Counted from the stretch's first letter, positions 36,971 to 58,093 are shown. The stretch: 64,000 nt of DNA from Candidatus Omnitrophota bacterium (GCA_016201795.1 JACQCF010000024.1:2115-66114), one strand, 5' to 3'. Notes: generated from the letters alone by a model not told the origin. Translations and numbers: made by a program.

Positions 36971-36973
36971 AAT

Positions 36974-38001: not shown

Positions 38002-38033
38002 AATATGAGTTATCATTTTAACGGGAGAAGATT

Positions 38034-41242: not shown

Positions 41243-41247
41243 TACGC

Positions 41248-42486
41248 ATGGCGATGTTTACTTATACAGCCAGAGACATGAGTGGTAAGATAAAGACTGA
41301 TATGATTGAGGCGCCCAACGAGCAGGGGCTGGTGGATAAACTTCAGGCACAGGGGTTATTTATCATCAAGGTGGCGGCCATGGCGGAAATGATGCAGGAA
41401 AAATCCGTGCAAAAGCCGGCGGAGGCCATTAAATTCCATCATGATAAAGTTAAACTGGAGGATTTGTTGACCTTTTCCCGACAGTTAGCCACCATGCTTG
41501 AGGCGGGGGTGGCGCTTTTGCGCAGTTTGAATGTCATTATTCCCCAGGTGCAGAGCCGGCAGTTAACCAGCATTTTAAAGCAGGTGCGCACGGACGTGGA
41601 AGCCGGTAAATCATTAAGTCAAAGCTTGAGCAAACATCCTAAAGTATTCGGGCAGTTCTGGGTGTCTTTGGCTGAGGTGGGGGAGGCTTCCGGCACCATG
41701 CCTCATGTTTTAAATAAGCTGGCCAATCACGTTCAAGAACAGGCGGAGTTTCGTTCAACGATTATCTCGGTGGCCATTTATCCGGCCATTCTTTTTACCG
41801 TATGCATCGGGGCGGTGGTTTTTTTTGCGCTGGTGGTGGCTCCTCGCTTTGAAGAAATTTTTACAGCCATGCACGCGCATCTTCCGGTCATGACACAAGT
41901 TCTGCTGGCAGTCTTTAAATTTATTAAAACAAATCTTATCCTTCTGTTGGCCGGGGGCGTGGGAGGATTCTTTGTGTTGAGAGCCTATTTATCTACGCCC
42001 CAAGGCGGTTTGATGGGAGAACGACTTATGTTTAGACTTCCCGTGGTGGGGGATGTGGTTAAGTTAATTATCGTGGAGCGTTTCAGTTCTCAGATGGCCA
42101 TTTTAGTGGACTCCGGTGTGCCCATTCTTTTGGCGCTGGAGATTACCGGACGTCTGGTGGAGAATCAAATCTGTGGTTCTTTAATCGCGCGAATCCAGGA
42201 AGAAGTGCGCGCGGGTAAAGGTATTGCGGATTCCATGGCCCAAGAAGGCTTTTTCCCGGTGATGGCGGTGCAGATGATCAAGGTGGGTGAAGAAACCGGG
42301 GAACTGGCTAAAATGCTCAATCATGTGGCGGCCTATTATAAAAGTAATGTGGAGGCTTTTGTGAAGCGTTTCGGCACCATTATCGAGCCGTTTATGCTGG
42401 TATTCATGGCTGCTGTTATCGGGGTTATAGTTGTATCTATCTTTTTGCCTTTATTTAAGTTGGGACAAGGCGGCGCGCCACATTAG
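41248..42486 (+). CDS. pilC: type IV pilus platform protein (GspF family)
   Basis: Two GspF repeats. Confidence 0.9.
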   Translation: MAMFTYTARDMSGKIKTDMIEAPNEQGLVDKLQAQGLFIIKVAAMAEMMQEKSVQKPAEAIKFHHDKVKLEDLLTFSRQLATMLEAGVALLRSLNVIIPQVQSRQLTSILKQVRTDVEAGKSLSQSLSKHPKVFGQFWVSLAEVGEASGTMPHVLNKLANHVQEQAEFRSTIISVAIYPAILFTVCIGAVVFFALVVAPRFEEIFTAMHAHLPVMTQVLLAVFKFIKTNLILLLAGGVGGFFVLRAYLSTPQGGLMGERLMFRLPVVGDVVKLIIVERFSSQMAILVDSGVPILLALEITGRLVENQICGSLIARIQEEVRAGKGIADSMAQEGFFPVMAVQMIKVGEETGELAKMLNHVAAYYKSNVEAFVKRFGTIIEPFMLVFMAAVIGVIVVSIFLPLFKLGQGGAPH

Positions 42487-42605
42487 TCTGTGAGCACAAA
42501 ATTTTAGGGGCAAGACTTGACAACGGCAGGGTAAAGATGTTAATCTTTAAGCGAAAGGATAGTTATCATACTTAAACCGTTATAAATAAAATAAGGAGAA
42601 AGATT

Positions 42606-43046
42606 ATGACTAGGTTAACCAGGAAAAGAAGCGGTTTTACGCTCATTGAAATCATCGTTGTTTTGATTATCGTTGGTGTACTGGCAGCTATTGCTTTGCC
42701 GAACCTTTTTAGAAACGTGATTAAAAGCAGGGCCCAGGAAGCATTACAGGCTATGAGCCCATATAGAAGTGCTGTGGAAGGCTGTATTGTGGCGCATCCT
42801 GCAAGTACTAGTACGAGTTGTACTAATGCTATTTTGAATAATGGAAATTGGACCACGACTAATTTTACCTATACTCTTACTGCACCTGCAGCCGCCACGG
42901 ATACCGGTTATGCTATTTTGGCAACCGGTCAAGCAGCGGTTCCTGCCACCGATACTATAACGATAACGCGTGCCGCAGCTGCTTCTCCTGCAGTGGGGGC
43001 CGTTACTTGTACAGGCGCTGGTCAGGATTTCCTAGGCATTTGTTAG
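42606..43046 (+). CDS. pilA: type IV pilin (major pilin 1)
   Basis: Class III leader KRSG|FTLIEIIVVLIIVGVLAAIALPN. Strong SD aaggaga. Confidence 0.85.
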   Translation: MTRLTRKRSGFTLIEIIVVLIIVGVLAAIALPNLFRNVIKSRAQEALQAMSPYRSAVEGCIVAHPASTSTSCTNAILNNGNWTTTNFTYTLTAPAAATDTGYAILATGQAAVPATDTITITRAAAASPAVGAVTCTGAGQDFLGIC

Positions 43047-43067
43047 TTTTTGATAGTTCAAATCAAA

Positions 43068-43101
43068 AGGCAACATCGAAGTCTGATGTTGCCTTTTTTT
43101 A
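43068..43101 (+). terminator. rho-independent terminator after pilA1
   Basis: aggcaacatc gaagtct gatgttgcct followed by ttttttt. Confidence 0.8.
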
Positions 43102-43170
43102 AATACCGCGTTTGACATTTAGTTACTAAGGATATATACTTATCATAAATGATAAGGACACCTTCTTAGT

Positions 43171-43758
43171 ATGAAATTGTCTCGACTGGAACAACTGGTC
43201 AAACGTCTGTATTTTAGCAGCGCCGATGTCGGCTCATTGTTTGAGCTTGCACCGGCATCCGCCCATCTGTTATGCAGCCGCTATACGGCCAAAAACGTCT
43301 TTATCCGTCTTAAAAAAGACTGTTACACTTTAAGCCAAAGGTGGAATTCGTTGCAAGGCAAAGATATCTTTCGCCTGGCTAATATCCTTCAGGTGCCTTC
43401 TTATATTTCCCTCATGAGTGCTCTTTCTTTTTTTCAGGTCACCACTCAAATGCAACAAAATTATATCGAAAGCGTCGCCTTGAAAAGGTCGGTCACATTT
43501 CATATTAAAGAAACGGATTTTAAATTTTATAAAATTGCTCCTGCTTTCTATGGAGATTTCGTTCGTCAAGACGAATTTTTTATCGCCACCAAAGAAAAAG
43601 CTTTCCTGGACTGTGCTTATTTGACATCTTTCGGCAAGTATCGTTTTGATGTTGCCTCCATTGATATTGATAAATTAGATAAAAAGAAAATTAAACAGGG
43701 ACTTAAACCTTATCCTAAAAAAACCCAAATGTTGGTGGAGCGTTTATGCAAGATTTAA
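43171..43758 (+). CDS. AbiEi-family antitoxin (type IV toxin-antitoxin/abortive infection)
   Basis: N-terminal wHTH-like LYFSSADVGSLFELAPASAHLLCSRYTAKNVFIRLKKDCYTL. Overlaps the downstream AbiEii gene by 13 bp. Confidence 0.55.
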   Translation: MKLSRLEQLVKRLYFSSADVGSLFELAPASAHLLCSRYTAKNVFIRLKKDCYTLSQRWNSLQGKDIFRLANILQVPSYISLMSALSFFQVTTQMQQNYIESVALKRSVTFHIKETDFKFYKIAPAFYGDFVRQDEFFIATKEKAFLDCAYLTSFGKYRFDVASIDIDKLDKKKIKQGLKPYPKKTQMLVERLCKI

Positions 43759-44417
43759 TCAAACAGGAACAATTTGAAATCGAAGTTCTGCAATACCTTA
43801 ACAGTAAAAGACTGCTGGGCAACCTTGTCTTTGGCGGCGGAACCATGCTGCGGCTGTGCTGGGGCCTCAACCGTTTTTCGGTCGACCTCGACTTTTGGCT
43901 GATCAAAAAAGCCGATCCCAAGGGCCTCTTTAAAGGATTGAAAGAACATTTACAACGCTCCTATGCTATCCGGGACGCCGCTATGAAATTCCATACCCTG
44001 CTTTTTGAAATTAAATCTCCCCGGTATCCGCGGGCCTTAAAAATAGAAATCCGTAAAGAATTAAAGAACGTCGAAACCGAAGGGGCCATCGCCTATAGCC
44101 CGCACACCTCAATCCAGGTCATACTTAAAACCATCACTTTAGAGGAAATGATGAAGGCAAAAATAGAGGCCTTGGTCGAGCGAAAGGAAATCCGTGACGC
44201 CTTTGATATCGAATTTCTTTTTAAAAAGTCCATCGCCATTAAAGCCTCCCCCAGGGTGCTCAAAAATGCGCTCACCATCATTCAAGGGTTTACCGCGAAA
44301 GATTATACCGTGAAACTGGGAAGCCTATTGGAGGCATCACAAAGGAAGTATTATGCCTCCTCTCATTTTAAAATTCTGCAATCGGCTATCAACGAACAGC
44401 TGGCGGATAAGGCATGA
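43746..44417 (+). CDS. AbiEii/AbiGii nucleotidyltransferase toxin (DUF1814)
   Basis: LVFGGGTMLRLCWGLNRFSVDLDFWL matches the GGTAL..RFSEDIDF signature. Confidence 0.75.
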   Translation: MQDLIKQEQFEIEVLQYLNSKRLLGNLVFGGGTMLRLCWGLNRFSVDLDFWLIKKADPKGLFKGLKEHLQRSYAIRDAAMKFHTLLFEIKSPRYPRALKIEIRKELKNVETEGAIAYSPHTSIQVILKTITLEEMMKAKIEALVERKEIRDAFDIEFLFKKSIAIKASPRVLKNALTIIQGFTAKDYTVKLGSLLEASQRKYYASSHFKILQSAINEQLADKA

Positions 44418-44445
44418 AACCGACATTGGACATATGGTCACGTAG

Positions 44446-44474
44446 TTGACATCGTACAGAGGGAATGTTATATT
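44446..44474 (+). promoter_or_regulatory. sigma70-like promoter giving a leaderless or very short-leader pilA2 transcript
   Basis: TTGACA, 17 nt, TATATT, ending 6 nt before ATG 44481. No SD. Confidence 0.45.
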
Positions 44475-44480
44475 TTAAAT

Positions 44481-44939
44481 ATGAGAGCTAAAAGAGGCTT
44501 TACGTTAATTGAAATTATAGTAGTTCTTGTCATCGTTGGAGTGTTGGCTACGATAGCTGTTCCCAATTTTGTCAACATGATAAACCAGTCCTATGCCCAG
44601 GATGCGATGCGTAATCTCATGGCCATTTACGCGGCGCAGGTCAGTAATCAACAAAATAGCGGTAGTTATTGTACGGCAAGCTGTGCAAACACAGGGTCAA
44701 TTAATAGCAACTTAGGAGTAAGCATTGTCACCAGCGGTGGTACGGGTTACAATTGTAATGTTATATGTACTGGGGGGACGCAGTGCTGTATTGCAGCAGG
44801 TCAAGGTTCTTTTACGATGCAGCTTGTACTGAGCAATCCTGTTAATGTCGGTACAGCTCCTGTATATTGTGGCCCAGCCAATCCTCCTCCTACTAATCCC
44901 TGCTGTCAGGGAGGGAATGCTGGTGATACTTGTCCATAG
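44481..44939 (+). CDS. pilA: type IV pilin 2, cysteine-rich C-terminal domain
   Basis: KRG|FTLIEIIVVLVIVGVLATIAVPN leader. 10 Cys in the 110-aa head domain, including CC pairs. Confidence 0.8.
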   Translation: MRAKRGFTLIEIIVVLVIVGVLATIAVPNFVNMINQSYAQDAMRNLMAIYAAQVSNQQNSGSYCTASCANTGSINSNLGVSIVTSGGTGYNCNVICTGGTQCCIAAGQGSFTMQLVLSNPVNVGTAPVYCGPANPPPTNPCCQGGNAGDTCP

Positions 44940-44942
44940 CCT

Positions 44943-45305
44943 ATGTTAAAAATTAATACCCAGGGCATGAGTCTTCTCGAGGCATTTTTAGCCGCGGTTA
45001 TTTTTGTGATCTCGGTGGCCGCGGTTTTTACCACCCTCATCGGTACACGCCGGCCGGCGGTGAATAATGATCAGATGACCACTGCCGCGCTGGTGGCCAA
45101 AAATGTTTTGGAAGATTTGCGTTCTAAAGTCGATGCCCTCGATTACCCTACTGGCAATTTAAGTAGTGGTACTCATACACTTACCGGTCAAGGCCCATCA
45201 GGTCTTTACAACGTCTATTACAATGTAACTTTACTCAATGCCTTGGATCCTAATTCCGCCAGGCAGGTGAACTTGACGGTTACTTGGCCGGATGCCGTAC
45301 CATAA
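44943..45305 (+). CDS. minor pilin/pseudopilin
   Basis: G|MSLLEAFLAAVIFVISVAAVF prepilin-type N-terminus. Confidence 0.55.
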   Translation: MLKINTQGMSLLEAFLAAVIFVISVAAVFTTLIGTRRPAVNNDQMTTAALVAKNVLEDLRSKVDALDYPTGNLSSGTHTLTGQGPSGLYNVYYNVTLLNALDPNSARQVNLTVTWPDAVP

Positions 45306-45307
45306 AT

Positions 45308-45934
45308 ATGAAAATTCTTAGTCATTTGGCCCTCAGTCTCATGGAACTTATTGTCGCCTCCGTTGTCGTTATTATTATTTTACTCGGGATTGCCTCTTCA
45401 CAGCTTATTTTTCAGAGAAACAGCAATTATTTCGGCAGCAACTATTTTGTCAGCGCCATGACCGATAATATGCTTAACCATATCCTCACCAGCGCGTCCA
45501 TGGCCATTGGAAGCGGTATAGCGAATGATAAAGGAATTCTGATTGGTTTAGCAGAGACCGGGGATGCTAATACCTTCTGCATTCATCAGGATGTTCAAAA
45601 GACGTTAGGGCCGGGAGTCGATTATCCGGGGACGGTGAATGGCGACCTTTTTACTACGGCAAATCACCGCTGGCTCTGTTATACGCTTGATTCCACTACT
45701 CATCAGCTTACTTATTGCGACCGTACATATACTTCAGGTGCGGCCAAGTGCCCTCCCGGTAACGGTATCGTTTTAGGTACAGCATTGAATGTAGGCCCCC
45801 CCAGTTTCACAAATGGTCTATTTTCGATAGCTATTACCAATTGCATGGACCCAACCCAGAGTACCTGTGGGACCACCTCTAATCCCTCTGTCACAAAAAC
45901 AGGAAGCGTGTCACCCTCCGCGCACAGCCTTTAA
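45308..45934 (+). CDS. minor pilin/pseudopilin-like protein
   Basis: LALSLMELIVASVVVIIILLGIA N-terminus with Glu at +5. The track ORF starts at 45284. Confidence 0.45.
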   Translation: MKILSHLALSLMELIVASVVVIIILLGIASSQLIFQRNSNYFGSNYFVSAMTDNMLNHILTSASMAIGSGIANDKGILIGLAETGDANTFCIHQDVQKTLGPGVDYPGTVNGDLFTTANHRWLCYTLDSTTHQLTYCDRTYTSGAAKCPPGNGIVLGTALNVGPPSFTNGLFSIAITNCMDPTQSTCGTTSNPSVTKTGSVSPSAHSL

Positions 45935-46040: not shown

Positions 46041-47333
46041 ATGTTAGATTTAAAATTTATCCGCGAAAATGTTGACAAAGTCAAAGCCGCCTTGGAGGCC
46101 AAAGGAGCTCAGGTGGACTTGAGCCGTCTTTTGAAGCTGGATGCCGACCGAAGGCGTTTGATCGTCGAACTTGATGAGCTCAAAGCCAAGAAGAATACGG
46201 CCAATGAAGACATCGGCCGCATGGTCAGGGAAAAGCGCGACCCTAAAGTTAAAATTGCCTTCATGAGGACAATTGCCTCTGGCATTGATGCTCTGGAACC
46301 GGCCATTAAAAAGGTGGAAGAAGAGCTCGGCCAGATTTTAATGATGATCCCCAATATCCCGCACCCGTCGGTGCCGGTGGGAGGTCCCGAAGCCAATCAA
46401 GAAGTTGCCCGTTGGGGAAAAACTCCCGTCTTCGATTTTAAACCCAAGACGCATATCGAAATCGCCGAAAGTTTGGATATTATTGATTTTAAACGCGCCG
46501 CTAAACTCAGCGGCTCCAATTTTGTTCTTTATAAAGATTCAGGCGCGCGCCTGGTGAGGGCTTTGTATAATTTCATGCTGGATTTGCATACGGCCAAGCA
46601 TGGCTACCGCGAGATGTTTCCGCCGGTGGTGGTCAACAGCGCCGCCATGACAGGCACCGGCCAGCTACCTAACATGAAAGAGGATATGTATAAACTCGAG
46701 GGGGATGATTTGTATTTGATTCCCACCGCCGAGGTGCCTCTGACCAATATTCACCGCGATGAACTTCTTAATGAAGAAGACCTGCCTTTGTATTATACGG
46801 CGTATACGGCCTGTTTCCGTCGGGAAGCCGGCTCTTACGGGAAAGATACGCGCGGCCTGATGAGGGTGCATCAATTTGATAAGGTGGAGTTGGTCAAGTT
46901 CGTCAAAGGGCAAGATTCTTATCAAGAGTTGGAAAGTTTGCTGGCTGATGCCCGTCGGGTGTTTGAACTGCTGGGGATTCCTTATCGGGTGTTGATGTTG
47001 GCCAGCGGCGATTTGAGTTTTGCAGCCGCCAAATGTTATGATATTGAAGTGTACGCGGCAGGTCTGGATAAATGGCTGGAAGCGTCCAGCTGTTCGAATT
47101 TTGAAGATTTTCAGGCCCGCCGGGCCAATATCGCCGTCAGGGGCAAAGACGGCAAGAAGAAAGGTTTTGTGCATACCCTCAACGCCTCCGGCGTGGCCTT
47201 GCCGCGCACCATGATTGCTATCCTGGAGAATTATCAAACCAAAGACGGCGATGTGATGGTCCCTGAAGCCCTGCGTCCTTATATGGGTGGGGTGGAAGTT
47301 ATTAAGAGGAAAAATAATCAGAAGAGTTCTTAA
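46041..47333 (+). CDS. serS: seryl-tRNA synthetase
   Basis: N-terminal coiled-coil arm plus class II catalytic motifs. Confidence 0.95.
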   Translation: MLDLKFIRENVDKVKAALEAKGAQVDLSRLLKLDADRRRLIVELDELKAKKNTANEDIGRMVREKRDPKVKIAFMRTIASGIDALEPAIKKVEEELGQILMMIPNIPHPSVPVGGPEANQEVARWGKTPVFDFKPKTHIEIAESLDIIDFKRAAKLSGSNFVLYKDSGARLVRALYNFMLDLHTAKHGYREMFPPVVVNSAAMTGTGQLPNMKEDMYKLEGDDLYLIPTAEVPLTNIHRDELLNEEDLPLYYTAYTACFRREAGSYGKDTRGLMRVHQFDKVELVKFVKGQDSYQELESLLADARRVFELLGIPYRVLMLASGDLSFAAAKCYDIEVYAAGLDKWLEASSCSNFEDFQARRANIAVRGKDGKKKGFVHTLNASGVALPRTMIAILENYQTKDGDVMVPEALRPYMGGVEVIKRKNNQKSS

Positions 47334-47413
47334 AGGAGAGTCCGCCTCATCAAAATGACTATGTCATTTTGATGGGCGAGACTTCTCCGGAAGAATTTCT
47401 CTGAAATTCTTCC

Positions 47414-47501
47414 GGAGAGGTGGCTGAGCGGTTGAAAGCGGCGGTCTTGAAAACCGTTATGGGCGCATAGTCCATCGTGAGTTCGAATCTCACCCTCTCC
47501 G
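47414..47501 (+). tRNA. tRNA-Ser (anticodon TGA)
   Basis: ggagaggtggctgagcggttgaaagc..., anticodon loop cttgaaa, long variable arm, ttcgaat T-loop. Confidence 0.85.
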
Positions 47502-47518
47502 TTGTTATTCAAATCTTC

Positions 47519-48163
47519 ATGGGTCAAATTCGCAAAATAGGGGAACTTTATTATATTGAATTTTACGCCCGTGGGCTTTTGTATGCGCAGGCCGCCGGGC
47601 ATGACGAACAAGCCGCCCAAAAGATGCTTGAGCACATCGAAGCTAAAATTGCCCACGGCGAGGCCTTGACCGTTGTGCGAGAAATTGATTTGAGCGCTTT
47701 CTTTGAACAGTTTTTAGCTCATGCTAAAGAGCAGTTTTCCGCCAAAAGTATGGGGCGTTTTGTGCAAATGTGGGAGCATTGGAAGGCTTTTCTTCAAGAG
47801 ACTCATCCTCATCTTAATAGCTTATCGCAAATAACCCCATCGGTGGTGGAGTCGTATAAAACCATTTTAGTCAAAACCTTTAGACCCAAAGTGGTTAACC
47901 TGACGATTTTGCTTTTGCGGGAAGTTTTAGAATATGGGATCAACATTGGTTTTATCAATGATAATCCCACGCTGCACCTGTGCCTGTTGGAAATGCCCAG
48001 GCAGCCTGTCGGAAGAGGTCAACGTTTGAATATGGCTAAAGATTTGTTAGCGCGGGGGGTGGGTTTGGGAAAGGTTTGTCAAATTCTTAAACTTAAAGAT
48101 GTAGCCCAGATCATGTATTGGGCAAATTTCATTCCCTTGCAAAGGGAAGATGTGTATAATTGA
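47519..48163 (+). pseudogene. tyrosine-integrase remnant (N-terminal arm/core-binding region only, no catalytic domain)
   Basis: GELYYIEFYARG... parallels GRYYIDYRVNG... of the intact integrase at 54000. No R..HxxR..Y catalytic region. Abuts the tRNA-Ser 3' end. Confidence 0.5.
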
Positions 48164-48187
48164 CCCCCTAGTCTTTGTAATTTTTTG

Positions 48188-48274
48188 GAGAAGTGGCTGA
48201 GTGGTTGAAAGCGGCGGTCTCGAAAACCGTTATCCCGCTTTGCGGGATCGAAGGTTCGAATCCTTCCTTCTCCG
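48188..48274 (+). tRNA. tRNA-Ser (anticodon CGA)
   Basis: ggagaagtggctgagtggttgaaagc..., anticodon loop ctcgaaa, long variable arm. Confidence 0.85.
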
Positions 48275-48295
48275 CAGTTCATTTAAGATTAAATT

Positions 48296-48829
48296 ATGGA
48301 CATTCAAGAAGCTTTCGAAAAAGCATTGAAAGAAACCGAAATCATCCGCAGCCGCGTGCTGTCCCTGCAGACCTTTGCGGACACGCACGTGCCGTATATT
48401 CTTTTGTCCGCCTCCTCCATTAATATGGGTGATACCGTCGTGCGCAGCGGAGAAGTACTGGTGCAAAAACCATCTTTGATCCTGCCGCCGAATATCCCGC
48501 AATTGGAAGGCTTTGAGATGGAGGATCAGCCGGTTTTAGATACGGATGCCATGATCAATTTTCTTTTAGTCAGGGGGGTCTCTTTGCCGTCGATGAAATA
48601 CAACAATAAAACATCGTCTCTGGACATTTTTGAAGGCCGGCTGGATGAAGCCATTAAACATTATAACAATCAGCTGCAGGCTCATGAGAATACCACGACC
48701 GGATTATTGATCGGCCCGCAGGAGGTGTGGCCTTTTTCTTTGATGATTTTTATCTGTAGCCAAATCGCGAAAAATTCTTCTGCCGACATCCGTAAATTAT
48801 TAGATCAATGGCATCGAAAAAATAATTAA
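48296..48829 (+). CDS. hypothetical protein
   Basis: 177-aa ORF immediately upstream of, and contiguous with, the M16 peptidase. No recognisable motifs. Confidence 0.4.
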   Translation: MDIQEAFEKALKETEIIRSRVLSLQTFADTHVPYILLSASSINMGDTVVRSGEVLVQKPSLILPPNIPQLEGFEMEDQPVLDTDAMINFLLVRGVSLPSMKYNNKTSSLDIFEGRLDEAIKHYNNQLQAHENTTTGLLIGPQEVWPFSLMIFICSQIAKNSSADIRKLLDQWHRKNN

Positions 48830-51430
48830 ATGAAACTCAAATTCATTATTTTTAGCCTTTTATCGTTGATCTGTCCGGGCCTTGCCCTGGCTCATCAGCC
48901 CCAGATTTTTAAAACAGTTTTAGACAACGGCCTGACCGTACTCATCCAGGAGGTGCCCTCCAGTGAAGTTATTTCCATTGATGCCTGTGTGAAAACCGGC
49001 TCTGCCGTCGAAGACCGCTATTTGGGCACGGGTATTTCGCATTTTATCGAACATATGCTTTTTAAAGGGACCTCCAAACGACCGGTGGGGGCCATTGCCC
49101 GCGAGGTCCAAAGTTTGGGCGGTACCATCAATGCTTCTACGTCGCACGATTATACGATTTATACACTGGACTTACCCCAAGGTTTCTTGAGTCAGGGACT
49201 GGATATTATCAGCGATATGCTCACAAACTCGAGCTTTGATGCCGACCAAATGCAGAAAGAACGCAAAGTCATCCACGGGGAAATGCGTCTTTATCGTGAC
49301 CGTCCTCATCGGTTTTTAAGTGATTTGGTCTTTCGTCATGTCTATATCCGCCATCCCTACCAGCATCCGATGATCGGTTATCCGATGCTTTTTGATTCCA
49401 TTACTCACGACGAGCTTTATGGTTATTATCAAGAACGTTATATTCCTAACAATATGGTGCTTTCCGTCGCCGGGCCGCTGAAAGCGGATGAAATTTTGCC
49501 GTTGATTAAAGCAGCGTTTAAAGACTTTAAATCCCGTCCTTTTGTACAGCGCCATCTGCCTGCGGAGCCACCTCAATTATTTGGGCGTTATGAGGAGGTT
49601 TATTACCCGACACCATTGATGCATTTTTCTTTGGCTTACCAGGGAGTCAGCGTTTCGGATCCAGATTTGTACGCGCTGGATGTTTTATCCATGGCCTTGG
49701 GCCAGGGGGAGAGCTCGCGGCTTTACAAAGACGTCTACAAAACTAAACATTGGGTAGAGAGTATTTCTGCTTCGAATTTTACGCCGCAGGATCAAGGTTT
49801 TTTTGAAATTGAAGGGGTGATGTCGAAGGATCATCTTCCAGAGGTCCTAGCGTCCTTAAAGGCGACTATCGACGATATTCAAAAACGCGGTCTGTCAGCT
49901 GTAGAGTTAGAAAAAACCAAACGCCAGGTTTCGGCCCAATTTATCTTTGGCAATCAAACCGCCCCCAGCCTGGCCTATCGGGCCGCTACTGATGAAGCAA
50001 TGACCGCAGATGCCAATTTTTCCCGTCATTATGTTGAGCAGGTGAAGCAAGTCACCAACCAAGATATTCAAAGAGTAGCCAACCGTTATTTACAGGATTC
50101 TCATTTAAGCGTGACCGTGTTAAAACCTAAAGCCATGGCCCCTGCGCCGTCAGTGCAGCCACCAGCCGCCGCGCCCGAGAAAATCAAAAAAGTTGTTTTG
50201 GATAATGGCTTAACTATTCTTCTGCACGAAGATCACAGTGTGGCCGTGGTTGCGGTCAAGCTGCTGATGTATGGCGGTACAAGGCAAGAAGACCCTGCCC
50301 GGGGCGGTATTGCTCATTTAACCGCTGATGTCTGGACTAAAGGCACAGGGCGTATGTCCGAAGAACAAATAGCCCAGGCCATGGAACAAAGGGGCGGTTC
50401 ATTAGACAGTTCTTCAGGACACAATACCATGACGGTTAGTATGGATGTTTTATCCGATGACCTGCTTTTTGCTTTGGATCTGCTGGAGGATGTGGTCAAA
50501 AATCCTTCCATGCCACCGGAGGCTATTGACCGCCAGCGTCAAGCGATGTTGACGGCCATGCAAGAGCGCGACGATGATATTATGGACGCTTCTTCCAGGG
50601 CTTTACTTGAAACGCTTTACTTAAAACACCCTTTACGTCTTGATCCTTTAGGTACCAAAGAAAGTCTTTCTAAAATGACTCGTGGGGACATCATCGATTT
50701 TTATCATCGTCTGATGTATGGAAATAATATGGTGATAGCTGTTTTTGGGGACTGTGATTCACCAAAAGTTTTACAGGATTTGAAGAAAAAGTTTGGCTCT
50801 TTAAAGAAAGGACAGGTACAGGTTAAATTATTTTCTGAACCGCCTCCCGAGAAGACCAGATTCAAAGATTTGCGGATGGACAAAGAGCAGGCTTTATTGA
50901 TGATGGCTTTCCGGGCACCAGCCTTCAGGGACCCGGACCGTTTTGGGATGGAAGTGCTGGACACGATTTTAGGAGCCAGTTTAAGCGGAAGGCTTTTTGT
51001 GAAAATCCGCGACCAGTTGGGCCAGGCCTACACCATAAGCTCCAGTTATAGCCCTGATCTAGATACGGGGACTTTTACGCTTTATGTGTTGACGAAGCCG
51101 GATAAAATTGATAGCGTTAAAGGCATTATAATCCAAGAGTTGGAAGATTTAAGAACGAGGGATGTGTCGGCCGAAGAGTTGCAAAGCGCCAAGAATTATT
51201 TAAAGGGTACATTCAAAGGGGAATTATTGACCAACAGCGCCTTGGCTTCCATGAGCAGTCTTGATGAGCTCTACGGTCTGGGTTATAATTTTTACCGTCA
51301 ATTCGACGGGGATGTGGATCAAATTACGGTCCAAGATGTTCGTCGTATGGCCAATCAATATTTAGATATTTCCAAAGCGGCGGTCGTTATTACAAAACCT
51401 AAAACAGCGGACACGAACACTCATGAATAG
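48830..51430 (+). CDS. secreted two-module M16 (pitrilysin/insulinase family) zinc peptidase
   Basis: Signal peptide. Inverted zinc motif HFIEH (HxxEH) in module 1. Second inactive-type M16 module. Confidence 0.8.
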   Translation: MKLKFIIFSLLSLICPGLALAHQPQIFKTVLDNGLTVLIQEVPSSEVISIDACVKTGSAVEDRYLGTGISHFIEHMLFKGTSKRPVGAIAREVQSLGGTINASTSHDYTIYTLDLPQGFLSQGLDIISDMLTNSSFDADQMQKERKVIHGEMRLYRDRPHRFLSDLVFRHVYIRHPYQHPMIGYPMLFDSITHDELYGYYQERYIPNNMVLSVAGPLKADEILPLIKAAFKDFKSRPFVQRHLPAEPPQLFGRYEEVYYPTPLMHFSLAYQGVSVSDPDLYALDVLSMALGQGESSRLYKDVYKTKHWVESISASNFTPQDQGFFEIEGVMSKDHLPEVLASLKATIDDIQKRGLSAVELEKTKRQVSAQFIFGNQTAPSLAYRAATDEAMTADANFSRHYVEQVKQVTNQDIQRVANRYLQDSHLSVTVLKPKAMAPAPSVQPPAAAPEKIKKVVLDNGLTILLHEDHSVAVVAVKLLMYGGTRQEDPARGGIAHLTADVWTKGTGRMSEEQIAQAMEQRGGSLDSSSGHNTMTVSMDVLSDDLLFALDLLEDVVKNPSMPPEAIDRQRQAMLTAMQERDDDIMDASSRALLETLYLKHPLRLDPLGTKESLSKMTRGDIIDFYHRLMYGNNMVIAVFGDCDSPKVLQDLKKKFGSLKKGQVQVKLFSEPPPEKTRFKDLRMDKEQALLMMAFRAPAFRDPDRFGMEVLDTILGASLSGRLFVKIRDQLGQAYTISSSYSPDLDTGTFTLYVLTKPDKIDSVKGIIIQELEDLRTRDVSAEELQSAKNYLKGTFKGELLTNSALASMSSLDELYGLGYNFYRQFDGDVDQITVQDVRRMANQYLDISKAAVVITKPKTADTNTHE

Positions 51431-52781
51431 GATCAAAACACTGGAATTAGAAGTCCTGGTTTTAGCCAAATTAAAAGGGAGAATGGCTTTGCTGGCCTCC
51501 CAAGAAGATCGTGAGCTGATGGTGGCCTCTGCCCTGGAACAAGTGTTAAAGGAGGACCATTCCCAAGAGTTTAAACCAGACCTTTCTTCCGTCGCAGAGA
51601 AAACACGTTTTATTAAAGGGTTTCTTTCGTATGGCGTTATCGAAGAGCTTTTATGTGATCCGGACATCGAAGATATTATCATCAATGCTTTAAAGCCCCT
51701 TTATATTCACCACGCGCAAAAAGGCTTTATCGCCACCGACAAAAAATTCTCCTCCCATCGGGAATTGGAGGTTTTTATTTTGAAGCTCGTTGTTTTTTCT
51801 GGCCGCCATGGTTATAACAAAATCGCCAATTTAGAATTAGCGAATTTAGCCGGGCGGGTCAATATCGTGGATACTCCTCTGGGGCCGCAGTTAACCATTA
51901 GTAAGGCCAAAATTGATCCGTTAAGTATTATCGATTTAATCAAATGCGGCAGCATGAGTTATGAGGTGGCAGGACAGTTGTGGCTTTATATGGAAGGTTT
52001 ATCTATTCGTCCGGCGAATGTGATTATTGCTGGCGGCCCGGGAACCGGCAAAACGACCCTGTTAAATGCCATGTTGAGTTTTATTCCGCCTAAAGACCGC
52101 TTGGTGGTTATTGAAGATACGCTGGAACTCAATACATTTCTGGAAGACAGCTGTTCTCGTCTGGAAACGGATGAAGATTTAGACCTTTCGGATTTGGTCA
52201 AAAACAGCCTGCGCATGCGCCCGGAGAGGGTGATTGTCGGTGAGGTGCGCGGGGCTGAAGCGCGGGATATGATCACGGCCGTTAATATCGGCAAATACTG
52301 TATGAGTACCATCCACGCATTAAGCGCAAGGGAGGCCATTTTACGTTTGGGCAATGAACCCATGAATGTGCCGGATATGCTCATTAATCTTATTGATGTT
52401 TTTATTATTCTTAAACGCTATCATGTGGACGGAAAACTCTTTCGCGTGGTGGAGGAGGTTTCCGAGACCAGCGGCATGGAAAACACAAAAATTTTATTGT
52501 CGCAGGTTTTTAAATACAATTATGAGCAAAAACGCGTGGTAGCGGTCTCGCCGAGCACAATTTACCGCGACCGCCTGGCCCGGGAGACTGGTCTGACGCC
52601 CAGGGAGATTATTGCCGAAACCTGGATCCGTGCCAGTGTGCTTAAGAATTTAGCCGATCGTGGTGTGAATACCATGAAAGAAGTCGCTATGTTCTGTCAT
52701 TATTACACCCACAATCCCGCGGAAGCCATGCATAAAATCGGTTTGGACCGCCAGCGCATGTTGAAGGAAATCAACAAATAA
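51423..52781 (+). CDS. CpaF/TadA/FlaI-like type II/IV secretion-family ATPase (orphan)
   Basis: N-domain GVIEELLCDPDIEDIIIN...GRVNIVDTPLGPQLTISK, Walker A GGPGTGKTT, Asp box RPERVIVGEVRGAEA, His box MSTIHALSAREAILRL. Overlaps the M16 stop by 8 bp. Confidence 0.75.
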   Translation: MNRIKTLELEVLVLAKLKGRMALLASQEDRELMVASALEQVLKEDHSQEFKPDLSSVAEKTRFIKGFLSYGVIEELLCDPDIEDIIINALKPLYIHHAQKGFIATDKKFSSHRELEVFILKLVVFSGRHGYNKIANLELANLAGRVNIVDTPLGPQLTISKAKIDPLSIIDLIKCGSMSYEVAGQLWLYMEGLSIRPANVIIAGGPGTGKTTLLNAMLSFIPPKDRLVVIEDTLELNTFLEDSCSRLETDEDLDLSDLVKNSLRMRPERVIVGEVRGAEARDMITAVNIGKYCMSTIHALSAREAILRLGNEPMNVPDMLINLIDVFIILKRYHVDGKLFRVVEEVSETSGMENTKILLSQVFKYNYEQKRVVAVSPSTIYRDRLARETGLTPREIIAETWIRASVLKNLADRGVNTMKEVAMFCHYYTHNPAEAMHKIGLDRQRMLKEINK

Positions 52782-52849
52782 TATGGCTTTGACAGCAAAA
52801 GGCGGTTTTGATATAAAAGTAGACTTTATTTTTGAGAAAATTTTGACGG

Positions 52850-52926
52850 GCGCCTGTAGCTCAACTGGATAGAGCATCAGTCTACGGAACTGAGGGTTGC
52901 AGGTTCGAGCCCTGCCAGGCGCGCCA
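52850..52926 (+). tRNA. tRNA-Arg (anticodon ACG), CCA encoded
   Basis: gcgcctg/caggcgc acceptor, anticodon loop ctacgga, T-arm gcaggttcgagccctgc. Confidence 0.85.
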
Positions 52927-52935
52927 GATTTCGTT

Positions 52936-53226
52936 ATGAGAACAAATCCTAAGTCTAATCCCAGCGAATCTTTTACTTTATTAGCCGGTTTTGCCCGAGA
53001 AATCAACACTCCTCTTCAATCGCTACTATTAAGCTCTCAAAAACTTTTAGATACCTATAAGCGTAAAGATTTTGAATATATTTCTTACAAAGATTTTCAA
53101 CGGATGCTGACGATGTTAGAACAGATCAATCAACAGATCAAACGTTGTTATGAGATTAGTGAGCGTCTGAAGGGTCTTGGTAAATCTAAAAGGAATCCTC
53201 GTGCGTATTTTACTTCCTGCGATTAA
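52936..53226 (+). CDS. small HisKA (DHp)-like protein lacking the phospho-accepting His
   Basis: FAREINTPLQSL aligns to the H-box sHELRTPL with His replaced by Arg. Confidence 0.35.
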   Translation: MRTNPKSNPSESFTLLAGFAREINTPLQSLLLSSQKLLDTYKRKDFEYISYKDFQRMLTMLEQINQQIKRCYEISERLKGLGKSKRNPRAYFTSCD

Positions 53227-53229
53227 GTC

Positions 53230-53715
53230 ATGACCAAATTCGATGAAATGTTGATGCAAGAGGCCATTCGTGAGGCTAAAAAAGCAGCTGAGGCCGGTGA
53301 GGTACCTGTGGGGGCGGTGGTGGTGCACGAAAACAAGATCATTGCCCGCGCCTATAATCAGGTGGAGATGCTCAAAGACCCCACCGCGCATGCCGAAATG
53401 ATTGCATTGACGGCAGCCACCAGTTATTTGTCATCGAAGTGGTTGCAGGAGTGTACCCTCTATGTTACAATCGAGCCCTGTTCGATGTGCACCGGAGCGA
53501 TGGTGTTGGCTCGTCTGGGGTGTGTGTGTTTTGGCGCCGAAGACCCCAAAGCCGGTGCCTGCGGATCAGTTTTAAATATTGCCAATCACCAAGGATTAAA
53601 TCACCGTCTGAATATTCAAGGGAATATTTTAGCTGCCCCCTGTGCTAGTCTTTTGAGTGAGTTTTTTAAGAAGAAGCGAAAGAATGTACCACGTTTACAT
53701 AGAAAGAATGTTTAA
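53230..53715 (+). CDS. tadA: tRNA-specific adenosine(34) deaminase
   Basis: HAEMIAL...PCSMCTGAM zinc-binding deaminase motifs. Confidence 0.9.
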   Translation: MTKFDEMLMQEAIREAKKAAEAGEVPVGAVVVHENKIIARAYNQVEMLKDPTAHAEMIALTAATSYLSSKWLQECTLYVTIEPCSMCTGAMVLARLGCVCFGAEDPKAGACGSVLNIANHQGLNHRLNIQGNILAAPCASLLSEFFKKKRKNVPRLHRKNV

Positions 53716-53790
53716 GAAGACTATTAGTGGAGAGTCCACCAAAATCTTTGATTTTGGTGAGACTTCTCCAAAATTTACTACGTAAATTTT

Positions 53791-53880
53791 GGAGAGGTGG
53801 CAGAGTGGCTGAATGCAACTGCCTGCTAAGCAGTTGGCCGGGCAACTGGCCCCCGGGTTCGAATCCCGGCCTCTCCGCCA
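53791..53880 (+). tRNA. tRNA-Ser (anticodon GCT), CCA encoded
   Basis: ggagaggtggcagagtggctgaatgc..., anticodon loop ctgctaa, long variable arm. Confidence 0.85.
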
Positions 53881-53999: not shown

Positions 54000-55034
54000 A
54001 TGGCAAGTCTAAGATTCAGAAGCGGGCGGTACTACATTGATTATCGGGTCAATGGCCAAAGGTTTCGCAAGGCCACCGGTAAATCGAAACGGATCGCTGA
54101 ACTCGCACTCAAAGACATTGAAGTAAAAATTGAACGCAATGACCTTGGGTTCATAGAAAAAGACGTTGAGTTAAACAAGCTCTTCGAAGAATTCCTCGCC
54201 TACGGCATCACCCACCACGCACCCAAAACACAAAAACGCTACAAAGGCATTCTCGATAATTTTAAAGAATTCCTCAAGAAGTTTCCGTTTATCAAAAAAG
54301 CTTCCCAATTGGATTCAAAATTTTTTGAAGACTATCAAACCTTCCGCAAAGTCAAAGGCGTTAGCAATAAAACAGTCAATATAGAACTCATCTGTTTGAA
54401 GGCCATGTTTAATCTGGCCATCAAATGGAATTACATTTGGGCCAGTCCCACCAAAAATGTCACGCCATTAAAAGAAGAAAACAACAAGAAGCCGCGATTT
54501 TTGAGCAAGGAGGAGTGCAAGATTTTGCTTGAGAATTGTGATGAATGGTTTTATCCAATTCTTTATACTTTTCTGCACACGGGCATGCGTAAAAGTGAAT
54601 TGGAGAATTTGACATGGAGTGATGTTGATTTCGAACGTAAAAAAATCAAAATCCGCTACAAGGATGATTGGAGTCCTAAAACATCCGAGCGCGAAATCCC
54701 CATCAGTAATGGCCTTTTTGAGTTGTTAAAGAAGCGGAAGGAAACCAACCAAATCCGCTCATGCCCGTATGTCTTTCACTTAAAAGGGGACAAGATAGAG
54801 GCCAATTATTTAAGGAAAAAATATCTGCCTTTAACCAAACAGTGCGGCTTCCCGGATGTAACTAAAATCCACAGCCTGCGCCATACTTTTGCCAGCCACC
54901 TGGTCATGAGCGGGGTGGACTTACCAACAGTCAAGAAGCTCATGGGCCATGCGGATATTGAAACAACCATGATCTATTCCCACCTGGCCGATGAGCATGT
55001 GGATAAGGCGGTGGAAAAATTGAGTTTAATTTAA
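54000..55034 (+). CDS. tyrosine recombinase/phage-type integrase
   Basis: C-terminal HSLRHTFASHLVMSGVDLPTVKKLMGHADIETTMIYSHL carries the R-HxxR-Y catalytic residues. Confidence 0.85.
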   Translation: MASLRFRSGRYYIDYRVNGQRFRKATGKSKRIAELALKDIEVKIERNDLGFIEKDVELNKLFEEFLAYGITHHAPKTQKRYKGILDNFKEFLKKFPFIKKASQLDSKFFEDYQTFRKVKGVSNKTVNIELICLKAMFNLAIKWNYIWASPTKNVTPLKEENNKKPRFLSKEECKILLENCDEWFYPILYTFLHTGMRKSELENLTWSDVDFERKKIKIRYKDDWSPKTSEREIPISNGLFELLKKRKETNQIRSCPYVFHLKGDKIEANYLRKKYLPLTKQCGFPDVTKIHSLRHTFASHLVMSGVDLPTVKKLMGHADIETTMIYSHLADEHVDKAVEKLSLI

Positions 55035-55099
55035 TATGAAAAGTTCTCTTGACTATACAAGTTATATGTTGTACACTTTTAGTGTACGGAAAGGCAACA

Positions 55100-55453
55100 A
55101 TGTTAAAGTCTATCTATTATTTTGTTGATATTCGTGGGAATAATCCGGTTAAGGAATTCATTAATAATCTGCCATTGAAAGAGCAAACGAAAATTGATGC
55201 CTATATTGAGGAGCTTAAAAATCAAGGCCATAATTTGCGCAGACCCATGGCTGACTATATAAGGGAAGGAATATATGAATTAAGGCCGGGTCATCATCGA
55301 GTATTTTATTTTTTCTTTTATCGAGAGAGCGCTGTTCTGCTCCATGCGATAAGGAAAAAAACGGACAAAATACCATCGAATGATTTAGATTTATGCCTTA
55401 AAAGAAAAAAAGAATTTGAACATCTTTGGGATATTAATAAACTTGATTCTTAA
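55100..55453 (+). CDS. Gp49/HigB-like RelE/ParE-family toxin
   Basis: MLKSIYYFVDIRGNNPVKEFINNLPLKEQTKIDAYIEEL...GIYELRPGHHRVFYFF...AVLLHAIRKKTDKIP pattern. Confidence 0.7.
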   Translation: MLKSIYYFVDIRGNNPVKEFINNLPLKEQTKIDAYIEELKNQGHNLRRPMADYIREGIYELRPGHHRVFYFFFYRESAVLLHAIRKKTDKIPSNDLDLCLKRKKEFEHLWDINKLDS

Positions 55454-55467
55454 CAGGGAGGTGTAAC

Positions 55468-55794
55468 ATGGCAAACATTCGGTTAGAAAGATTTGAAGAT
55501 CATCTTCAAGAAAAGCTTAAAGATAAAGAATTCCGCCGTCTTTATGAAATTGAGCGGGCCAAGGTGGCTTTAGCTCAAAAGATTGCAGAAATGCGGCAGG
55601 ACAAGCATCTTAACCAAAAGGCCTTGGCCGTTAAGCTTGGGGTATCCCAGCAATTTGTTTCACAAATAGAGACCGGTGAAGGCCGTAATCTGACTTTGGA
55701 TACGCTTATCCGCATAGCCGCATCTTTAGGACATAAAGTACGCCTCTCTTTTCCTAGAAATGTGGGTAACGGCGCGCATCTTGAAGTAGCTTAG
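55468..55794 (+). CDS. XRE-family HTH antitoxin (HigA-like)
   Basis: QKALAVKLGVSQQFVSQIETGEGRNLTLDTLIRIAASLG helix-turn-helix. Confidence 0.7.
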   Translation: MANIRLERFEDHLQEKLKDKEFRRLYEIERAKVALAQKIAEMRQDKHLNQKALAVKLGVSQQFVSQIETGEGRNLTLDTLIRIAASLGHKVRLSFPRNVGNGAHLEVA

Positions 55795-55984
55795 CGAAAA
55801 GGAAGATTACCTATGTTAGATTGGGGCCGTGATCACAGGAAGCATAGCTTTTTTCATGGGTGTTAAAATTCATGTCAACGGTTTAAAATGGCAGTGGGAT
55901 GAGGTGGTGTGCCGCCATGATGATTCCATCGAATGGAAAAGAATGACATGGAGCGGGGCAAACGCAAGCCGGCATCCGTTAAAC

Positions 55985-56210
55985 ATTTAAAATTTGGTTT
56001 TAAAAATCATTACGAATGGCATTACCAATGGCGTTACAATTTTGTAACGCCATTCGTAATTTTAGGGCTCTTTAACTCTCTTATTTGCAACGGTTTTTTG
56101 GGCGAAAGCGGCCCAAAATCGTTCAAGACCCCTCTCTCCCAACCATAGGTTAAGCAGGGAGACAGGGGTCTTGAACTAACCGTTGCAATAGGAGAGAGTG
56201 ATTAGATATC
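55985..56210. repeat. long structured non-coding region: nested inverted repeats and a ~140-nt imperfect hairpin
   Basis: attacgaatggc..ggcgttacaattttgtaacgcc..attcgtaat. Then ctctcttatttgcaacggtt [gggcgaaagcggccc] gttcaagacccctctctcc ... gggagacaggggtcttgaac taaccgttgcaataggagagag. Confidence 0.5.
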
Positions 56211-56287
56211 AATTATCTTGAGGTTTATTATTTAAAGAGTAAGATGTTAAAAAATGTGGGATCAATTAAAAAGAGGGGTAGTTGTTT

Positions 56288-58093
56288 ATGAGGTTATTTA
56301 AAGGTCTGGTAATTGGGAATATTTGGGGTGGGATTTATGGTTTTGTTGTCGTCAGTTTCTTTTGCAAGATGAGCAACCTCCCCATATTGAAAAATAAAAA
56401 TTTGATCGTATTGTTTTTATTCTTCTTTTGTTTTTGTTCTCGCACCTGGGCTGTGGATCTGCCGGCAGGGCAGGATGCCGCCGCTCAAGCAGAGCGCTAC
56501 AGGTATAATGTTGAGAACCAGAAAAAAATTTTGGAATATAAAAAACCAAAAGGGCTGAAGATAGGGCCCGAGAAAGAAAAAGTCAAACCTGTAAGCAAGG
56601 GGCCGTCTTTTCTACTTAATGGAGTCAATGTGACCGGCTCGAGTGTCTTTAAACCGGAGGATTTCCGGAAAATTTACGGGCTCTACCTCAAAAGACAAGT
56701 CACATTTCAGGATATGCAGGAGGTCGCCGGCAAGATTGAGTCAAAATATAAACAGGAAGGGTACTATACGACGACAGTTTATATCCCTCAACAGAACATC
56801 CAGAATGGGGTCATAGAAATCCGCGTCGCCGAAGGGGAAATGGGGAACTTGAGCATAGAAGGCAACAGATGGTTTTCCGCTGATTTCATAAAAAGATTCA
56901 TTCACGTCAACAGAGGCGAAATACTGAACATTAAAAAGCTGGCGAGGGACATCTTGCGTTTAAACAAGAACCCGGATTTACAAGTCAAGGTGGTGCTTTC
57001 CCAAGGCAGGGTTGCGCAGACCACGGATATTTCATTGAAAGTGGAGGGCCGGCGGCCCTGGCACGTGGGTGTGCAGGTGGATAACAGTGGGACACGCCTG
57101 ACAGGAAAAGTCCGTCCCATGCTTTTTACCCGTTCTTCCAACGTTTCCGGACGGGGGGATATGATTTTTATCAATTCCCTTTACACGGGTGACTCTTTGG
57201 GTGAATCCGTAAGCTATAGCGTACCGGTGGGGACCAATGGCACAAAATTCGGACTTGATGTGACTTATTTCCGGTTGAAAGTGGGCAAGGAATTCAAATC
57301 TTTTAATATTACCGGTGTCTCGCAGATTTATACGCCCCACCTTTCCTGGGAGCTTGCGTTAACGGAAGATTTTGAAGCTTATTATGATCTTGGGATCAAT
57401 ATCAAATCCATAAACAAAAAGCAGGCTGGTACTGTTACGGACAATGGCCAAATGCGCATCCCGTATTTTGCCTTTGATTTTATAAAGACAGACTCCGAGG
57501 GGGTCACGACATTTAGTCCAAAATTTGATTTTGGCACTTCCGGATTTTGGGGCTCTTCCAGACGGAATTATAGCCCTTCCAGCAGGGCGAATACGGGGGG
57601 ATCATTTTTCAAATATCAGCAGTCATTAAACCGGACGCAAAAGATGTTTTTCGACAGCTATGTGACGATACGCACGCAATTACAGCTTGCGTCACATACC
57701 CTCGCGCCATCAGAACAACTTCAGCTTGGCGGGGCGGATTCTATCCGTGGTTATCCCGAAGGAGATTATTCGGCAGATAACGGAGGATATATGAATTTTG
57801 ACTGGTTTTTCCCGTCCTATGTCATTCCTGAAACTTGGAAATTGCCGGGGCAGGAGGCACCCTTACGCCGCCAGATACAACCTGTGTTTTTTGTTGATTT
57901 AGGCGGCGGCAAATTAAAGGAAACTCAGTCAGGGGAAACAAAGGATAAGTTTCTTGCTGGAATTGGAGGTGGCTTAAGTATGAATTTTAAGTCGTTTTCG
58001 CTACGTTTAGATTGGGCCAAATCTATCGGCGATAAACAATCCTCAGGTTCAGGCCCTTCCACATTTTATTTCACTTTCCGGTCGGAAATATAA
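56288..58093 (+). CDS. ShlB/FhaC/HecB-family two-partner-secretion outer-membrane transporter
   Basis: POTRA region LLNGVNVTGSSVF...IEIRVAEGEMGNLSIEGN plus C-terminal beta-barrel ending in aromatic residues. SD agagggg before ATG 56288. Confidence 0.8.
   Translation: MRLFKGLVIGNIWGGIYGFVVVSFFCKMSNLPILKNKNLIVLFLFFFCFCSRTWAVDLPAGQDAAAQAERYRYNVENQKKILEYKKPKGLKIGPEKEKVKPVSKGPSFLLNGVNVTGSSVFKPEDFRKIYGLYLKRQVTFQDMQEVAGKIESKYKQEGYYTTTVYIPQQNIQNGVIEIRVAEGEMGNLSIEGNRWFSADFIKRFIHVNRGEILNIKKLARDILRLNKNPDLQVKVVLSQGRVAQTTDISLKVEGRRPWHVGVQVDNSGTRLTGKVRPMLFTRSSNVSGRGDMIFINSLYTGDSLGESVSYSVPVGTNGTKFGLDVTYFRLKVGKEFKSFNITGVSQIYTPHLSWELALTEDFEAYYDLGINIKSINKKQAGTVTDNGQMRIPYFAFDFIKTDSEGVTTFSPKFDFGTSGFWGSSRRNYSPSSRANTGGSFFKYQQSLNRTQKMFFDSYVTIRTQLQLASHTLAPSEQLQLGGADSIRGYPEGDYSADNGGYMNFDWFFPSYVIPETWKLPGQEAPLRRQIQPVFFVDLGGGKLKETQSGETKDKFLAGIGGGLSMNFKSFSLRLDWAKSIGDKQSSGSGPSTFYFTFRSEI

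Follow-up and report, generated by a model that had tools for sequence, protein, structure and literature searches.

A 64-kb stretch of DNA from a Candidatus Omnitrophota bacterium (GCA_016201795.1, JACQCF010000024.1:2115-66114; hereafter the window, analysed on one strand with positions counted from its first letter) carries three consecutive genes. These encode a protein of 177 amino acids (aa), which we call hyp177, a zinc peptidase of the M16 type, and a type IV filament ATPase of the archaeal-type GspE2/FlaI/CpaF branch. The hyp177-M16-ATPase module is a real and intact operon, found in the same core-chromosome position of many Omnitrophota, and all three genes are real, with hundreds to thousands of conserved homologues. 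As for its function, we favour, tentatively, the explanation that the ATPase drives, as an accessory or second motor, machinery resembling the type II secretion system (T2SS) or the type IV pilus (T4P). Omnitrophota are uncultured nanobacteria suspected to be predators or parasites, a hypothesis in which their pili and secretion systems play a central part (PMC10066038). The module offers a concrete object for tests: it may belong to an unusual secretion or pilus machine with two motors, or show this ATPase family in a new role.

The initial annotation had reported three open reading frames (ORFs), flanking tRNA genes and a short overlap between the M16 and ATPase genes, all of which were borne out by ORF calls, ARAGORN and the sequence itself (Table 1). 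The stop codon of hyp177 directly abuts the start codon of M16 (taa followed by atg), and the stop of M16 and the start of the ATPase gene overlap by exactly 8 bp (ATGAATAG). Abutting or overlapping genes were also found in relatives, for example with overlaps of 4-8 bp in locus L001 (numbers with the prefix L denote the loci of relatives). This juxtaposition of codons suggests that M16 is co-transcribed and translationally coupled with the ATPase gene. A scan for promoters and terminators was uninformative, because it returned the same counts as shuffled sequence. The window is otherwise an ordinary piece of chromosome, containing arginine and lysine biosynthesis genes, uvrA and serS. Identity of the module as a defence system was rejected, the sole match to PADLOC defence models being an 18-bit P-loop match to mad8.

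To describe the distribution of the module, 34 genome and 80 metagenome loci were taken, their neighbouring genes were mapped by tblastn and the set was reduced to 102 unique Omnitrophota loci. According to ATPase identity, these were divided into groups A (at least 69%, n=63), B (59-68%, n=36) and C (below 59%, n=3). Wherever the upstream flank was long enough, hyp177 preceded the ATPase gene in groups A (36/36) and B (25/25), that is in all 61 such loci with at least 59% ATPase identity. M16 was located between the two genes in 12 of these 36 loci of group A and in 23 of the 25 of group B; the resulting 35/61 loci span ATPase identities from 59% to 81%. With short contigs counted, M16 stood directly upstream of the ATPase gene in 48 of the 102 unique loci, so the pairing of peptidase and ATPase noticed in the initial annotation is real and conserved. 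That annotation also held that such a pairing is not a described system; no description was found in the searchable literature, and searches for the module itself, for FlaI in Omnitrophica and for orphan archaeal-type ATPases yielded no result. In group C, both hyp177 and M16 are absent and the ATPase gene stands alone, preceded by a small ORF with two transmembrane segments. This small conserved ORF (the segments are predicted, and it has no Pfam match) also occurs upstream of hyp177 in several group B loci.

The conserved core of the module is composed of hyp177 and the ATPase, and M16 is a frequent but dispensable middle gene. In a neighbour-joining tree of the ATPases, M16-containing loci were basal and also present in the clade of the window, while the loci without M16 formed one large derived clade plus L009 and L010. 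From these positions, it can be concluded that the order hyp177-M16-ATPase was probably ancestral for groups A and B and that the locus lost M16 on at least two occasions.

The assignment of the ATPase to the CpaF/TadA/FlaI branch, made from the outset, holds. The protein matched Pfam T2SSE (PF00437) with 109.9 bits against a cut-off of 24.9. The best NCBIfam model was archaellum FlaI (NF058587), with 204 bits and thus under the 550-bit equivalog cut-off, followed by the TadA-conjugal, TrbB and VirB11 models. Among structures in the PDB, the best match was GspE of A. fulgidus (2OAP, 1.1e-52), aligned over residues 27-439 and covering the N-terminal, RecA-like and C-terminal helical domains. 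CpaF structures matched at 4.5e-40, with the alignment reaching residue 367 only, and the FlaI structure at 3e-36. As far as sequence comparison can tell, the protein is a member of the T2SSE superfamily (CpaF/FlaI/GspE2 branch) with intact catalytic motifs and resembles archaeal GspE2/FlaI more closely than bacterial CpaF. Automatic "TadA/CpaF/FlaI" labels on thousands of database entries are thereby corrected; the ATPase of the window itself is named "Flp pilus assembly complex ATPase component TadA" by NCBI, and its relatives are named "CpaF family". Many orthologues are also flagged with PF27713 (UCP018868).

Alignment of 33 orthologues revealed that Walker A (GGPGTGKTT), the Asp box (VVIEDTLEL) and Walker B with its catalytic Glu (RPERVIVGEVRG) are near-invariant. 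In the His box (NIGKYCMSTIHA), the second His is kept (TIHA) and the first is replaced by Lys (NIGK, residue 291, about 52293-52295) in 33/33 orthologues, which makes this residue a family-specific signature. The initial statement that all signature boxes are present was therefore correct for Walker A, the Asp box, Walker B and the second His, but not for the first His. The four intact elements are common to the window protein and to archaeal GspE2 and FlaI, its best sequence matches. Unlike these, it resides in a bacterial host, has hyp177 and M16 as partners and carries Lys in place of the first His; and unlike in FlaI systems, neither the window nor the annotated flanks of relatives contained genes for FlaJ, FlaH or archaellins. 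With CpaF/TadA, it shares the branch, the structure match mentioned above and the public annotation name, but not the C-terminal domain, and it differs in that its gene occupies a fixed core-genome position instead of a Tad locus.

A total of 7209 homologues of the ATPase were found, and the best 120 of these 7209 were at least 69% identical to it. Its identity to relatives (55-81%) is similar to that of serS (62-88%), and over the 102 unique loci such values point to purifying selection. Together with the near-invariance of the catalytic boxes, this contradicts the suggestion that the ATPase might be what is left of a decayed Tad locus.

As for the peptidase, a hidden Markov model search detected two pairs of Peptidase_M16 and Peptidase_M16_C domains (Pfam), just as it detected T2SSE in the ATPase. 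The zinc motif HFIEH is located at residues 71-75, and the corresponding motif of the second half is degenerate (HLTAD at 496). The N-terminus is a Sec-type signal peptide, MKLKFIIFSLLSLICPGLALA, which ends in ALA and is followed by HQ. The claim of a secreted tandem M16 peptidase was thus confirmed, and the protein is best described as a fused M16B-type zinc peptidase with a predicted active N-terminal and a predicted inactive C-terminal half. In having two M16 + M16_C modules, one half with HxxEH and the other degenerate, it is similar to fused or heterodimeric M16B peptidases (PqqL-like and YmxG/YfmH-YfmF-like). Unlike these, it scored under the cut-off of every equivalog model (YfmF/YfmH, PqqF and pitrilysin) and is encoded between hyp177 and a secretion-type ATPase. 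Other protease-related secreted proteins adjoin the module in relatives, namely a serpin encoded just upstream of hyp177 (L099) and a 956-aa pro-kumamolisin (S53)/fn3 protein encoded just downstream of the ATPase (L022).

No match to hyp177 was obtained with Pfam, NCBIfam or PADLOC models. Its homologues (n=878) are 65-88% identical, and all those with a source name come from Omnitrophica/Omnitrophota. An AlphaFold2 model (predicted local distance difference test score, pLDDT, of 74) has an alpha/beta fold with a long C-terminal helix; it gave no informative fold match in PDB or BFVD, and neither a PDB sequence match nor an informative profile match was obtained. Since no transmembrane segment is predicted either, hyp177 would be a cytoplasmic protein of an uncharacterised family, and a steady upstream partner of the ATPase. 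Distant relatives were detected by tblastn in metagenome-assembled genomes (MAGs) of Dehalococcoidales/Chloroflexota; these are 23-26% identical, 225-235 aa long with an extra C-terminal segment, and encoded beside DUF6657 or a HAD hydrolase with no T2SSE ATPase nearby (Table 1). Further relatives with 33-44% identity were present in two other MAGs beside unrelated genes, again with no adjacent ATPase. As these distant relatives do not accompany the ATPase, the hyp177 family is broader than this pairing, and their unrelated contexts weaken the idea of hyp177 as an obligate ATPase partner.

According to the initial annotation, the ATPase was an orphan with no pilin or secretin partners nearby. 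This was not the case. A complete T4P/T2SS-like gene cluster is located 2.4-13 kb upstream of the module in the window, on the same strand (Table 1), and it encodes a PilM/N fusion, PilO/GspM-like and T2SSC-like proteins, a secretin, GspE/PilB with MshEN, GspF/PilC and four pilin-like proteins. Between the cluster and the module lie serS, two tRNA genes and an integrase-domain gene. Moreover, a complete T2SS operon directly follows the module in at least 15 relatives: of 50 group A loci, at least 15 have a GspC-like gene whose start is 1.2-1.7 kb past that of the ATPase gene, with genes for the secretin, GspE, GspF and pseudopilins next in line. This is represented for example by L125, where JGI gene calls on one strand give the order serS, 179-aa protein, p145 (see below), hyp177, ATPase, 164-aa GspC-like protein, secretin, GspE (MshEN + T2SSE), GspF, GspG, three unannotated ORFs, GspK and PilM/N. 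Other arrangements were also observed: in L024, three pilins, a PilX-like protein, a secretin, an ExeA-like AAA_22 protein and Wzy_C are encoded directly before p145-hyp177-ATPase; in L021, a 438-aa GspE-like T2SSE ATPase is encoded just before p145; and in L010, as in the window, pilins precede serS.

The protein p145, of about 145 aa, is confined to Omnitrophota; it was present in 24/36 group A loci and in no group B locus, and its gene is always directly upstream of hyp177. Its structural model (pLDDT 92.8) consists of a long N-terminal helix and a seven-stranded sheet, and the 12 best PDB matches were all complexes of the T2SS minor pseudopilin GspJ/EpsJ/XcpW (probability 0.95-1.0, TM-scores 0.44-0.52). 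No canonical prepilin cleavage motif, Gly(-1)/Glu(+5), is present. Protein p145 is a membrane protein and, according to this confident pilin-like model, has a GspJ-like pseudopilin fold. With hyp177 and this GspJ-fold protein, two unannotated protein families are defined.

As regards the absence of a TadB/TadC platform stated in the initial annotation, no gene of this type adjoined the ATPase in any locus examined, but GspF/PilC, pilins and a secretin are close by in the window. The only T2SSF-family protein among the window ORFs scanned was the 412-aa GspF/PilC, encoded next to its own GspE/PilB. In the flanks of L001 and L003, no T2SSF gene was found, and L125 contained only the GspF of its T2SS operon. 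Likewise, TadB/C, Flp, RcpA and TadZ were all missing from the window and from the annotated flanks of relatives.

From these observations, a model can be proposed in which the ATPase, a motor of the hexameric type, would act as an accessory or second motor of T2SS/T4P-like machinery. Platform (GspF/PilC), secretin and pilins would be supplied by the upstream cluster in the window, or by the genes directly downstream in many relatives; we infer the link between the window cluster and the ATPase from the arrangements in relatives. According to the model, hyp177 would be a cytoplasmic partner specific to the lineage, with a possible role as adaptor or regulator, and M16, exported by Sec, might serve the machinery as a processing enzyme in the periplasm or be its cargo. 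The data show the gene content, the intact motifs, the conservation, the synteny and the pseudopilin-like fold of p145; docking of the ATPase on GspF/PilC, like every other physical contact in the model and any role of M16 in secretion, is what we infer. Pilus systems with two ATPases are well known (PilB with PilT/PilU), and cargo genes beside T2SS operons are a known pattern, for example pulA. The resemblance to multi-ATPase systems of T2SS or type IVa pilus type (GspE; PilB with PilT/PilU) lies in the position of the module at the head of a canonical GspC-D-E-F-G...K operon in at least 15 relatives, together with a pseudopilin-fold gene. Unlike PilT/PilU, the extra ATPase is of archaeal type, and in the window the cluster is separated from the module.

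Several points weigh against this model. No pilus/T2SS gene was detected in the flanks of group B (36 loci) or group C (3 loci), and adjacency to T2SS genes could therefore be secondary. No platform gene adjoins the ATPase in the 102 loci, except for GspF of T2SS operons that have their own GspE. Protein p145 is absent from the window and its closest relatives, and hyp177 homologues of 23-44% identity occur apart from any such ATPase. Finally, we know of no precedent for docking of a FlaI-type ATPase on GspF/PilC, nor of any T2SS using a second ATPase.

With respect to the peptidase, a quite possible alternative is that M16 is a mere co-transcribed passenger, i.e. a housekeeping protease of the periplasm that is mechanistically unconnected with the ATPase. 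A large derived clade and L009/L010 lack M16 at the locus (at least two losses), which would fit this, as would the compartment of M16, which differs from that of the ATPase and hyp177 on account of the signal peptide, and the occurrence of different secreted-protein genes nearby in other loci (S53 pro-kumamolisin in L022, serpin in L099). On the other hand, the position of M16 is kept in 35/61 loci over the whole range of 59% to 81% ATPase identity, and its overlapping or abutting codons suggest translational coupling. The passenger role of M16 is compatible with both alternatives for the ATPase described below.

The first of these assumes that the ATPase was taken over for a core function involving neither filament nor platform, working with hyp177 (and with the two-transmembrane protein in older lineages), and that the T2SS link is secondary in one subclade. 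In the deepest lineages, the ATPase gene indeed stands alone between tRNA-Ser(GGA) and tRNA-Arg(ACG) in a serS/tRNA/tadA cluster, and no dedicated platform gene adjoins it in 102 loci. The Lys that replaces the first His of the His box in all 33 orthologues, the conservation at housekeeping level and the lack of a known fold matching hyp177 point in the same direction. Nevertheless, we consider this explanation rather unlikely, given the recurrent linkage to T2SS/T4P genes in multiple arrangements and the presence of a pseudopilin-fold protein. Furthermore, every characterised member of this ATPase branch that we know of acts on a polytopic platform to power a type IV filament machine. An even bolder possibility, and a somewhat more doubtful one, is that the archaeal-derived ATPase forms a core Omnitrophota machine with no FlaJ/TadC/GspF platform, which together with hyp177 (and small membrane or pseudopilin-like proteins in some lineages) exports, activates or delivers M16. 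If true, the phylum, whose members are probable predators or parasites, would possess an export or processing system not recognised before.

It is improbable, in our opinion, that the ATPase is the motor of a split Tad pilus, with the genes for TadB/TadC, Flp, RcpA and TadZ at other sites of the genome. The TadA/CpaF names given by NCBI and the CpaF structure match (4.5e-40) would agree with such an arrangement, and TadBC/RcpA are present in some Omnitrophota (PMC10066038). However, archaeal GspE/FlaI models outscore CpaF/TadA, and the C-terminal domain aligns with the archaeal protein only. Tad is also patchy in the phylum, being present in 74/116 Velamenicoccia species, rarer elsewhere and missing from most Gorgyraia (PMC10066038), in contrast to the fixed position of the ATPase in all loci sampled. 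The Tad locus of V. archaeovorus has been described as complete (PMC10066038) and would as such be expected to carry its own ATPase.

The tRNA genes on both sides of the module had been taken as borders of a cassette. As evidence of mobility, these borders do not stand: the same tRNAs flank the same genes in all relatives in which tRNAs were scanned (55-81% ATPase identity). The conserved order, in which individual loci may miss single elements, is serS, tRNA-Ser(UGA), tRNA-Ser(CGA), often tRNA-Ser(GGA), the module, tRNA-Arg(ACG), sometimes a PAS/histidine kinase gene, tadA (here the tRNA adenosine deaminase gene) and tRNA-Ser(GCU). In most of the relatives scanned, the module is immediately preceded by a tRNA-Ser gene, and in 15/24 the ATPase gene is directly followed by tRNA-Arg(ACG); tRNA-Ser(GGA) is missing from this site in the window. 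The ATPase is thus situated in the middle of a translation-related supercluster (46041-53880 in the window; also L032-L034, L084, L099 and L112) in every lineage sampled. TadA edits tRNA-Arg(ACG), the very tRNA that neighbours its gene here. The GC content of the module (0.45-0.46) is like that of its surroundings, and no flanking att-like direct repeats were found beyond the similarity of tRNA-Ser paralogues; the two tRNA-Ser genes around the integrase-domain ORF are 94% identical over their first 47 nt. As the tRNA order is conserved, the GC content even and the repeats only those of tRNA-Ser paralogues, the module is not a mobile cassette, and the flanking tRNAs are ancestral neighbours instead of island borders.

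The ORF between these two tRNA-Ser genes (listed start at 47477, inside tRNA-Ser(UGA)) had been described as an integrase remnant. It indeed contains only the SAM-like N-terminal domain, yet it is conserved at 54-70% identity in five relatives (L008, L010, L023, L035 and L037) and may have been kept and domesticated as a fragment instead of decaying. An intact tyrosine integrase is encoded 1.2 kb downstream of the module beside tRNA-Ser(GCU), and it probably marks a real, separate insertion. A mobile tRNA-targeted cassette or a decayed Tad remnant is therefore hardly credible despite the tRNAs on both sides and the two integrase-related genes, since the arrangement is kept in about 100 loci with all genes intact and strongly conserved, there is neither a shift in composition nor a flanking direct repeat, and the intact integrase lies past tadA and tRNA-Ser(GCU).

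Table 1. Positions of the module, its neighbours and related features in the window and in the loci of relatives
Feature	Location	Position	Strand	Basis
hyp177, 177 aa	window	48296-48829	+	ORF call
M16 peptidase, 866 aa	window	48830-51430	+	ORF call, Pfam
Archaeal-type ATPase, 452 aa	window	51423-52781	+	ORF call, Pfam T2SSE
T4P/T2SS-like cluster	window	35471-45934	+	Pfam domains
Two-gene insertion in pilin-like genes	window	43171-44417		
serS	window	46041-47333	+	translation; synteny at 62-88% identity
tRNA-Ser(UGA)	window	47413-47502		ARAGORN
Integrase-domain ORF (SAM-like N-terminal domain only)	window	47519-48163		Pfam
tRNA-Ser(CGA)	window	48187-48275	+	ARAGORN
tRNA-Arg(ACG)	window	52850-52926	+	ARAGORN
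HisKA-only ORF, about 96 aa	window	52936-53226		
tadA (tRNA adenosine deaminase)	window	53230-53715	+	domain assignment, synteny
tRNA-Ser(GCU)	window	53791-53880		ARAGORN
Intact tyrosine integrase	window	54000-55034		
Integrase and following genes	window	54000-58093		
59-nt repeats	window	63180-64000		
p145 (also in 21 other loci)	L021	9021-9458		
p145	L022	9023-9460		
p145	L001	4460-4894		
Two-transmembrane ORF (also L033, L034)	L032	9413-9688		
Serpin	L099	3409-4635		
Pro-kumamolisin (S53)/fn3 protein	L022	11471-14341		
Distant hyp177 relatives	L039/L040	7231-7935, 8001-8705		tblastn
Distant hyp177 relative	L041	8001-8693		tblastn

A few additional features were observed around the module. 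Just after tRNA-Arg(ACG), and ending 3 nt before tadA, the window contains a HisKA-only ORF. Relatives have a full kinase at this position (in L001, one of 243 aa with HATPase_c; in L099, a PAS kinase of 415 aa), so that the window ORF looks truncated. Further upstream, the pilin-like genes at 42606 and 44481 are interrupted by a two-gene insertion, composed of an unannotated 195-aa ORF and an overlapping gene for an AbiEii-type toxin. Beyond tRNA-Ser(GCU), the intact integrase gene is followed by genes for a Gp49-family (HigB-like) protein, a helix-turn-helix protein and a two-partner secretion transporter of the ShlB/FhaC type. At the very end of the window, 59-nt repeats spaced 762 nt suggest the presence of a large repetitive gene.

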